A DNA stretch of 64,000 nt from Eledone cirrhosa (lineage: Eukaryota): NCBI GenBank assembly GCA_964016885.1, contig OZ024751.1:43028001-43092000 (forward strand). Direction: 5' to 3'. The translations under genes and the position numbers were made by a program. The first letter of the stretch is position 1. Every line of letters starts with the position of its first letter. A model generated the notes under the pieces. The model worked only from the letters and a program-made list of their open reading frames with translations, did no database searches and was not told the origin of the DNA. Positions 3,341-3,912 of the stretch are shown here, one piece after another.

Positions 3341-3912
3341 AATCAAGGTTTAGCAAATAAGAAAAAGTTTCAAAATAAATTTCAAAAAATTCACTCTACT
3401 CACTATGGTTACCTTTACCGAATCGGTTTCGAATCTCAAAAATAAATGGACAGTCCTTACGGCCTTCCATTGAAAAGATAAACTCTCGTCAGAAGGTTCT
3501 TTTCACTCGGAGAATATAAAATTCCCGTGTTCAAATTACGAAGTGGCGCTATTCAAAATTGTTCCCGAGATGAGAATGAATGATGTGGAAGCAATTCTGT
3601 CCCGTGCCGTGTGTAAAGATAGAAGCAGAGGCAGGGAGGTCAGTCTACTACCACTATAAATAGCAGCAGTCAAAACGACCAAATTTTTTCTCGACCAAGA
3701 GGAGATAATAATAATAAAGTATATATCCCTACACGCAAAAAGCGTCCAGGGACACATGTATTGTCTAACCATATGCCAATGTGGTTCAATGGCAGGTTAA
3801 TAAATTAACGAGCCAGAACATATATAATCAAGGTTTAGCAAATAAGAAAAAGTTTCAAAATAAATTTCAAAAAATTCACTGTACTCACTATGGTTACCTT
3901 TACCGAATCGGT
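3341..3912 (-). mobile_element. Family D hammerhead-bearing repeat (PLE pLTR/retrozyme-like): 485-bp unit plus partial direct repeat
   Basis: AATCAAGGTTTAGCAAATAA starts at 3341 and again at 3826; abuts (TA)n; homologous copy at 23609-24178. Confidence 0.75.
3411..3497 (-). ncRNA. Hammerhead ribozyme motif, family D (long stem II)
   Basis: RC: ACCTT-CTGACGA-GAGT...ATTC-GAAA-CCGATTCGG-TA-AAGGT. Confidence 0.75.

Follow-up and report, generated by a model that had tools for sequence, protein, structure and literature searches.

Two loci of one AT-rich stretch of eukaryotic DNA, dense in microsatellites, carry a short element made of one full unit and a piece of another, and they raise the question of which RNA was copied into this arrangement, and by which enzyme. 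The window, that is, the whole stretch analysed, covers 64,000 nucleotides, and the features described here are listed in Table 1. The first-pass annotation had described both copies of this family (D) as a full unit (485 and 482 bp) plus a partial repeat, with an identical junction in 2 of 2 copies and outer ends merging with genomic (TA)n, and these observations were confirmed. Between the units 412 of 487 alignment columns were identical (15% apart), and BLAST of copy 1 against copy 2 gave E=2e-174, by which chance likeness was ruled out; the two copies are a real feature. Neither a third copy (BLAST, word size 7) nor a dimer or multimer of the unit was found in the 64-kb window. Both copies lie in long microsatellites, as could be expected of a local duplication or an assembly artefact. 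Considering that the loci are 20 kb apart and diverged, share a junction, and each have a repeat with its own variants, such an origin is extremely improbable.

Table 1: Features of the two family D copies and of related elements in the window.
Feature	Position	Strand	Details
(TA)n at 3′ end, copy 1	3165-3340		likely target/primer site
Full unit, copy 1	3341-3825	minus	485 bp
Predicted 3′ tail hairpin, copy 1	3345-3415	minus	
Type I hammerhead motif, copy 1	3411-3497	minus	H17 at 3416; helix I 3497-3493 with 3415-3411; core 3492-3486; GAAA 3430-3427
Helix II, copy 1	3485-3431	minus	two-part, 55 nt; helix III palindromic
Block invariant between copies, across junction, copy 1	3767-3845	minus	79 bp
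Predicted hairpin in unit-start part of block, copy 1	3819-3784	minus	
Partial repeat of the unit's 3′ end, pLTR-like, copy 1	3826-3912	minus	87 bp, 1 mismatch
Inverted piece of RT ORF	3914-3973	minus	60 bp, ending at Asp of DKT
Hydra-type Penelope-like ORF, 5′-truncated	3971-6113	plus	RT, linker, C-terminal GIY-YIG
Short (TA)n at 3′ end, copy 2	23592-23608		
Full unit, copy 2	23609-24090	minus	482 bp
Hammerhead motif, copy 2	23680-23762	minus	core 23757; H17 23685; helix II 52 nt
Invariant block, copy 2	24032-24110	minus	79 bp
Partial repeat, copy 2	24091-24142	minus	52 bp, 0 mismatches, without cleavage site
Inverted copy of unit nt 11-48, copy 2	24141-24178	plus	38 bp
Second Hydra-type PLE fragment	49991-50584	minus	intact CxCX5C linker, C-terminal endonuclease region, 198 codons open
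Second type I hammerhead repeat family, 12 cores	9034, 16974, 26566, 59258	plus	
 	16836, 17367, 18056, 26501, 27081, 46870, 47150, 59084	minus	

The 3′ end of the element is fixed at (TA)n in 2 of 2 copies, 74-75 nt past the predicted cleavage site; the 5′ ends vary and reach 87 and 52 nt into the repeat. It had been proposed that the unit is followed by its own beginning. The tandem arrangement stands, and since the ribozyme and the presumed RNA lie on the minus strand, the repeated part is in fact the 3′ end of the element. The repeat of copy 1 retains helix III and the cleavage site (H17 at 3901), without the CUGACGA core, and it ends at A15.1 (3912), 12 nt from that site, as had been noticed before. 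The second locus had been taken as unit plus partial repeat over the entire interval 23609-24178, which is correct up to 24142; the last 36-38 bp are inverted. This inverted piece finishes 10 nt before the usual 3′ end, at an internal UA, and passes into a second (TA)n (24177-24217). A near-perfect palindrome, spotted by eye, lies at 2925-3023, with arms of about 46 bp, 140 bp to the left of the (TA)n of copy 1.

Family D is non-coding. The substitutions were evenly distributed over codon positions in 6 of 6 frames, three frames gave nothing close to a cut-off in Pfam, and the 101-aa frame, the sole one put to large protein searches, had no relative among 205 candidates nor among 1.84 billion representatives. 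The best E in tblastn of 36 PLE proteins against the element was 0.16. The first-pass annotation had likewise seen no convincing coding capacity. One minus frame contains a short REQFW-like string, which we take to be reminiscent of GIY-YIG C-termini; a coding remnant was ruled out by the lack of codon bias and of protein matches. A Pol III SINE was also discarded, with no A/B boxes under the consensus applied and no Rfam match. As to the 3′ UTR of the adjacent Hydra-type ORF or of the second Hydra-type fragment, local alignment was at shuffle level in 6 of 6 comparisons and this candidate was rejected. A 24-nt pattern of the element had 0 matches in prokaryotic genomes, as expected.

A core scan detected one hammerhead core per copy, on the minus strand (3492 and 23757). 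The 19 pairs of helices I, II (two parts), and III all hold in both copies (38 of 38 cells; slid controls, 14-61%), and the 3 variable pairs remain paired, one of them via a two-sided change; the covariation shuffle (266/500) is uninformative with two sequences. The hammerhead descriptor matched in 0 of 5000 shuffles of each unit, a figure that overstates the significance because the descriptor was written after the motif had been seen. Rfam, at gathering and E-value thresholds, reported no hammerhead or other credible family in the element. The palindromic helix III was calculated at -16.3 and -18.6 kcal/mol as a homodimer versus -3.0 and -1.9 kcal/mol as a hairpin (copy 1 and copy 2, resp.), and action as a dimer through such a helix is a design described for PLE hammerheads (PMC4209133). 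The predicted active fold was 6.2 (copy 1) and 2.1 (copy 2) kcal/mol above the local minimum, and for short nascent RNAs the computed probability of helix I was 0.004 and 0.15, with about 0 when circles or whole copies were folded. Self-cleavage of this element is a prediction.

The base of the predicted tail hairpin shares 5 nt of the 3′ arm of helix I, so that both folds are mutually exclusive. The pairing probability of this hairpin was 0.56-0.97 in copy 1 and 0.06-0.12 in copy 2. Taking into account the weak pairing in copy 2, its role as a conserved ribozyme-blocking switch was set aside as unproven. A loose scan also gave a lone hammerhead-core match at 57281-57384 (minus strand), with weak helices and missed by a stricter descriptor, which is probably due to chance.

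The unit and the repeat are joined by exactly ATATAT in both copies. This junction is embedded in the invariant block, composed of 20 nt of the 3′ end, the ATATAT, and 53 nt of the unit start, which is the longest invariant run (3 of 100000 permutations); 59 nt of this run are located beyond the insertion end, on its 3′ side. When the unit was folded as a circle, the AUAUAU was mostly unpaired (0.40-0.96 per base) and the folds were branched, with 57-60% of paired positions and z values of -3.4 and -2.3 for the minus strand and -1.8 and -2.9 for the plus strand. Considering that the plus strand scores similarly, the circular folding energy was dropped as evidence of the RNA strand. The 151-nt junction region alone folded no better than its shuffles (z -0.93). 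The substitutions that keep pairing were 15/30, 14/26, 13/27, 17/29, 11/25, and 18/25 on the minus strand (p 0.008, 0.06, 0.02, 0.01, 0.10, and 0.0002) and 8/22, 13/29, 10/26, 10/23, 7/19, and 8/23 on the plus strand (p 0.58, 0.025, 0.40, 0.05, 0.52, and 0.30), that is, above expectation at p<0.05 in 4 of 6 and 1 of 6 tests, resp., the tests being non-independent.

The unit could be only the 3′ UTR or pLTR of an autonomous PLE with its ORF outside the window, and the junction a fixed internal stop or deletion point. The REQFW-like string, with its likeness to GIY-YIG C-termini, would agree with this. The second hammerhead family of the window consists of such 3′ ends with fold-backs, and PLE insertions are heavily 5′-truncated (PMC8557442). 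Against it, the boundary is the same in two lineages and the strongest conservation begins exactly there; codon-position bias and protein relatives are, as stated, lacking. We consider this origin improbable.

The variants carried by the repeats indicate when these were made. In copy 1, 7 of 8 diagnostic columns of the repeat match its own unit and the eighth is its single mismatch; in copy 2 the direct and the inverted repeat match their own unit in 2 of 2 columns each, and the columns matching the unit of the other copy are 0 for all repeats. Since an inherited pair would drift apart, the repeat was likely remade after the lineages split, and a simply inherited, independently drifting pLTR pair is excluded. 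The earlier reading is partly supported: it is retained as a retro-insertion of Penelope type at (TA)n, whose template had the unit start after its 3′ end. The circle, the cleaving ribozyme, and priming at the internal UA run, as opposed to a terminal (UA)n tail and a subsequent template jump, are candidate parts of it. We hold with considerable confidence that the partial repeat is remade at each cycle.

Copy 1 runs uninterrupted across two cleavage sites (3416 and 3901), which excludes a cleaved linear monomer as its template. The copies are compatible with a circle, with a template jump on linear RNA, and with an uncleaved multimer. The exact junction in both lineages slightly favours a fixed template. 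Both copies stop at most 87 nt past one full round, which fits a jump, or an RT stalling at its own product. The repeat of copy 1 keeps the whole substrate strand, and hence one core might in principle be enough to cleave at both sites and free a monomer of 485 nt; copy 2 could not release one.

In the case of a jump, a linear unit-length RNA with a (UA)n tail would be primed at its end and the RT, on reaching the 5′ end, would switch to the 3′ end of that RNA or of a sister molecule, with no circle involved. The invariant block would then represent a 3′ recognition signal and a 5′ internal promoter, adjacent only in the tandem. The tandem insertion of second copies is the standard account of pLTRs (PMC8969392), and a jump explains the concerted repeats. 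Both copies also end no more than 87 nt from the completion of one unit, and the ribozyme fold is poorly populated, which speak for it. It is harder to reconcile with an exact ATATAT in 2 of 2 lineages 15% apart, considering that tails of variable length should give variable junctions, and with an RNA strand that has no Pol III A/B box (by the same consensus) and contains 6-9 runs of at least 4 T. We see the jump as a serious, if somewhat doubtful, candidate. A multimer would make the copies short offspring of homogeneous tandem arrays located elsewhere (classical non-LTR retrozymes), primed within an uncleaved transcript. The two uncleaved sites of copy 1 and the dimer-type helix III agree with it, and retrozyme families hold many monomer-like copies, with consensus lengths of 51-972 bp (bioRxiv 10.64898/2026.07.22.740005); nevertheless, the window holds no dimer or multimer, 485 nt exceeds the 170-400 nt of the characterised circles (PMC7229834), and the arrays themselves would require a remaking step. 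This origin seems rather unlikely. The circular RNA is the template that we place first, by a narrow margin.

The 5′ end of copy 1 is contiguous to a second element, a truncated ORF that appears, by motifs and identity, to belong to the Hydra clade: it bears DKT (at 4032), YRDD, and the endonuclease in the order of these proteins, CxxC and CxH near its C-terminus, and a CxCX5C linker that is degenerate, with Tyr in place of the last Cys; such features characterise the clade (PMC8557442). Its N-terminus, in which an RWK motif would be expected, is missing. The ORF was 47-50% identical to its two best long relatives, and one named relative of this RT is from Octopus sinensis. The Pfam match to GIY-YIG had E=0.014, below the cut-off. 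There are three frameshifts and no in-frame stop in the 694 codons examined; this absence of stops bounds the decay of the ORF to about 5%, which is compatible with a single insertion event. The 3′ end of this remnant (6110-6560) showed no hammerhead and no (TA)n. Downstream of the ORF, at 6360-6830, there are degenerate repeats with a spacing of about 122 bp, one of the two pairs having been recognised by eye.

An inverted piece of the RT ORF is attached to copy 1 at its 5′ end, 1-2 extra bases lying in between. This piece contains about 35 bp missing from the forward ORF and 24 bp of exact duplicate, with a 3-nt overlap at the inversion point, and it resembles the product of twin priming as in L1. 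In 19 of the 22 long relatives compared, 9 of them near-duplicates, its translation reaches exactly to the D of DKT, and in 13 of the 22 the forward upstream piece stops 12 residues short of DKT; these 22 are the 36 fetched proteins minus 14 that were shorter than 430 aa or without an early DKT-type motif. The first-pass annotation had suggested checking whether any copy is linked to a PLE ORF in sense orientation, and the outcome is mixed. A Hydra-type ORF does abut copy 1, but its orientation is opposite to that of the element, save for the 60-bp inverted piece, and no alignable similarity was found between the unit and the ORF or its 3′ region. Outside microsatellites, unit 1 also shares three exact 13-nt matches with the remaining sequence of the window, and two of them, at 6420-6432 and 4147-4159 (plus strand), fall in or just after the Hydra-type ORF, in sense, and correspond to the core of the invariant hairpin and to part of helix II. 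They are post hoc, unsupported by alignment, and may be chance.

The adjacency could come from separate events, that is, an insertion of the element beside an older Hydra-type copy with a target deletion, or an inverted piece produced when repair synthesis used nearby DNA as its template. PLEs show a tendency to land within or next to other PLE copies (PMC6765202); the ORF, with its three frameshifts and decayed 3′ end, may predate copy 1; and there is one case only, without homology between both elements and without such a neighbour at copy 2. On the other side, the 5′ end of the element meets the inverted piece within 1-2 bases, this piece holds sequence absent from the forward ORF and overlaps it by 3 nt at the inversion point, and the bound on the ORF decay is compatible with the 1 mismatch in 87 of the repeat. 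Separate events fall a little short of an even chance in our estimate. The joint insertion of copy 1 and the Hydra-type sequence, a single case, stands at about even odds, and the balance is equally level for a Hydra-type enzyme as the carrier of the family.

The second hammerhead family of the window has the same (TA)n ends and fold-backs, which makes this anatomy ordinary in this genome. The first (TA)n is found 39-55 nt after H17 in 9 of 12 cores and 139-141 nt after it in 3 of 12, which suggests two 3′ ends, and three fold-back pairs were recognised. Among other elements, a near full-length non-LTR retrotransposon occupies 37461-41109 (minus strand), with two open frames of 604 and 618 aa that include an RT (Pfam RVT_1) as well as a zinc finger, and with (ATT)n/(TAT)n tracts on its flanks; we presume from its C-terminal motifs a restriction-like R4/Dong type. 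A weak tRNA match (52318-52377, minus strand, 30.1 bits) lies in a repeat that recurs near 63380-63499 and is likely the head of a tRNA-derived SINE.

The partial tandem, the inverted 5′-truncated copy, the (TA)n target, and the hammerhead near the 3′ end are the reasons to read family D as a PLE insertion (PMC8557442; PMC8969392), the inverted piece being its own sequence in copy 2 and Hydra-type ORF sequence in copy 1. It is very probably a non-autonomous derivative of a PLE, and it is likely, taking both statements jointly, that it is a non-autonomous Penelope-like element whose partial repeat is remade in each cycle. A possible cycle would begin with a tandem-containing transcript cut at two hammerhead sites, with the palindromic helix III acting as a dimer, and the cut unit would be ligated into a 485-nt circle. 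A borrowed PLE GIY-YIG nuclease would nick (TA)n, and the freed end would anneal to the AUAUAU, which is mostly unpaired and has the tail hairpin on one side and the invariant hairpin on the other. The RT would read past its own start, giving one unit and 52-87 nt more, a product that is seen in both copies, and this extra copying would remake the partial repeat from the same molecule. The other end would be closed by a second, opposite priming, whose product is observed in copy 2 on the element's own tail; in copy 1 it likely took place on Hydra-type PLE RNA.

A bolder version, which we regard as a long shot, is that of a circular parasite RNA acting as a minimal telomerase-type template: the AUAUAU, clamped by two hairpins, would pair with nicked (TA)n and recruit a Hydra-clade RT, the tail hairpin would lock the hammerhead off in the circle, and copy 1 would be the fossil of a single event in which one enzyme copied the element and then its own mRNA. 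If so, the junctions of copy 1 would directly connect a retrozyme-like RNA with its carrier. Should the fusion with Hydra-type sequence recur, the carrier could be named from insertion junctions, of which we found no example in the literature consulted. The family bears on how PLE partial tandems form and on the role of the hammerhead in them, and it offers a compact substrate: 485 nt long, with an unvarying junction, conservation around the proposed priming site, and a candidate enzyme adjacent. The conserved junction block, the concerted repeats, and the junction with Hydra-type sequence are its most noteworthy features.

By comparison with known systems, this family belongs to a known class, with a few unusual details. 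The carriage of hammerhead repeats by PLEs has already been proposed from co-occurrence and trees, and hammerheads were noted before in a squid genome (PMC6962438). No description of family D was found in the literature searched, a search that ran outside Repbase/Dfam and most subscription papers and is not proof of an undescribed family. Non-LTR retrozymes are tandem repeats with type I hammerheads, expressed as circles of 170-400 nt, with PLEs as proposed carriers (PMC7229834), and they have been argued to be non-autonomous PLE derivatives, under a definition that needs two consecutive complete ribozymes (bioRxiv 10.64898/2026.07.22.740005). Family D resembles them in being non-coding, with less than 50% GC, a type I hammerhead, a head-to-tail junction, and a proposed circle and PLE carrier, a route proposed already in both papers; judged by the coding tests, it also encodes no protein, and it presumably has no LTR/PBS/PPT design. 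It differs in that they form arrays, whereas each locus here has 1.1-1.2 units and one complete ribozyme, so neither locus reaches the two of that definition, and the name retrozyme (the first-pass annotation had said retrozyme-like) does not apply in the strict sense. The unit, 482-485 nt, is longer than the characterised circles (PMC7229834) and within the 51-972 bp of the wider set (bioRxiv 10.64898/2026.07.22.740005). Helix II (52-55 nt) and the PLE-type inverted end are unlike those of retrozymes, and the circle is predicted to block the ribozyme; in most circles of metazoan retrozymes the ribozyme stays free (PMC7229834). Among retrozyme elements assayed, self-cleavage was seen in only 1 of 9 (bioRxiv 10.64898/2026.07.22.740005).

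In PLEs it is usual to find partial tandems, inverted 5′ copies, and non-autonomous members (PMC8557442; PMC8969392). Like MRC1 of Chlamydomonas, family D is a short non-coding element that forms pLTRs and head-to-tail insertions; elements of the MRC1 type belong to Chlamys and are mostly without hammerheads, unlike this one (PMC8557442). The non-autonomous Chlamys elements described there generally resemble their partner at the 3′ end, whereas family D had no 3′ similarity to either of the two Hydra-type remnants in the window. Three longer motifs of the element had 0 matches in the supplement of PMC8557442, and an 8-mer had one unrelated match.

In the case of PAc, a Poseidon element of Anolis and the one PLE assayed in vitro, reverse transcription begins at +111 to +118 and depends on RNA up to +172, some 54-61 nt 3′ of the start, and hammerhead cleavage is dispensable for insertion in vitro (PMC11167929). 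Family D shares with it the AT-rich target, the hammerhead, and, as proposed here, an internal RT start with required 3′ RNA; its 59 nt beyond the insertion end are of similar extent, by analogy only, the clade being different and the start non-homologous. PAc is autonomous and starts at an AC-rich stem-loop non-homologous to the cut DNA (PMC11167929), whereas the end of family D falls at a UA run complementary to its target.

In target and ends there is also a resemblance to the Hydra clade, whose members almost all insert in (TA)n and include one family from Octopus bimaculoides, Hydra-1_Obim (PMC8557442). Family D has in common with them this target, a type I hammerhead near the 3′ end, inverted 5′ copies, and a palindromic helix III of 3-4 bp with a loop of 1-3 nt (PMC8557442). 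It differs in encoding nothing and in a helix II that is, by eye, roughly double the maximum among the 26 Hydra rows listed in file S2 (PMC8557442), a file in which a spike-moss PLE has a helix II of comparable length.
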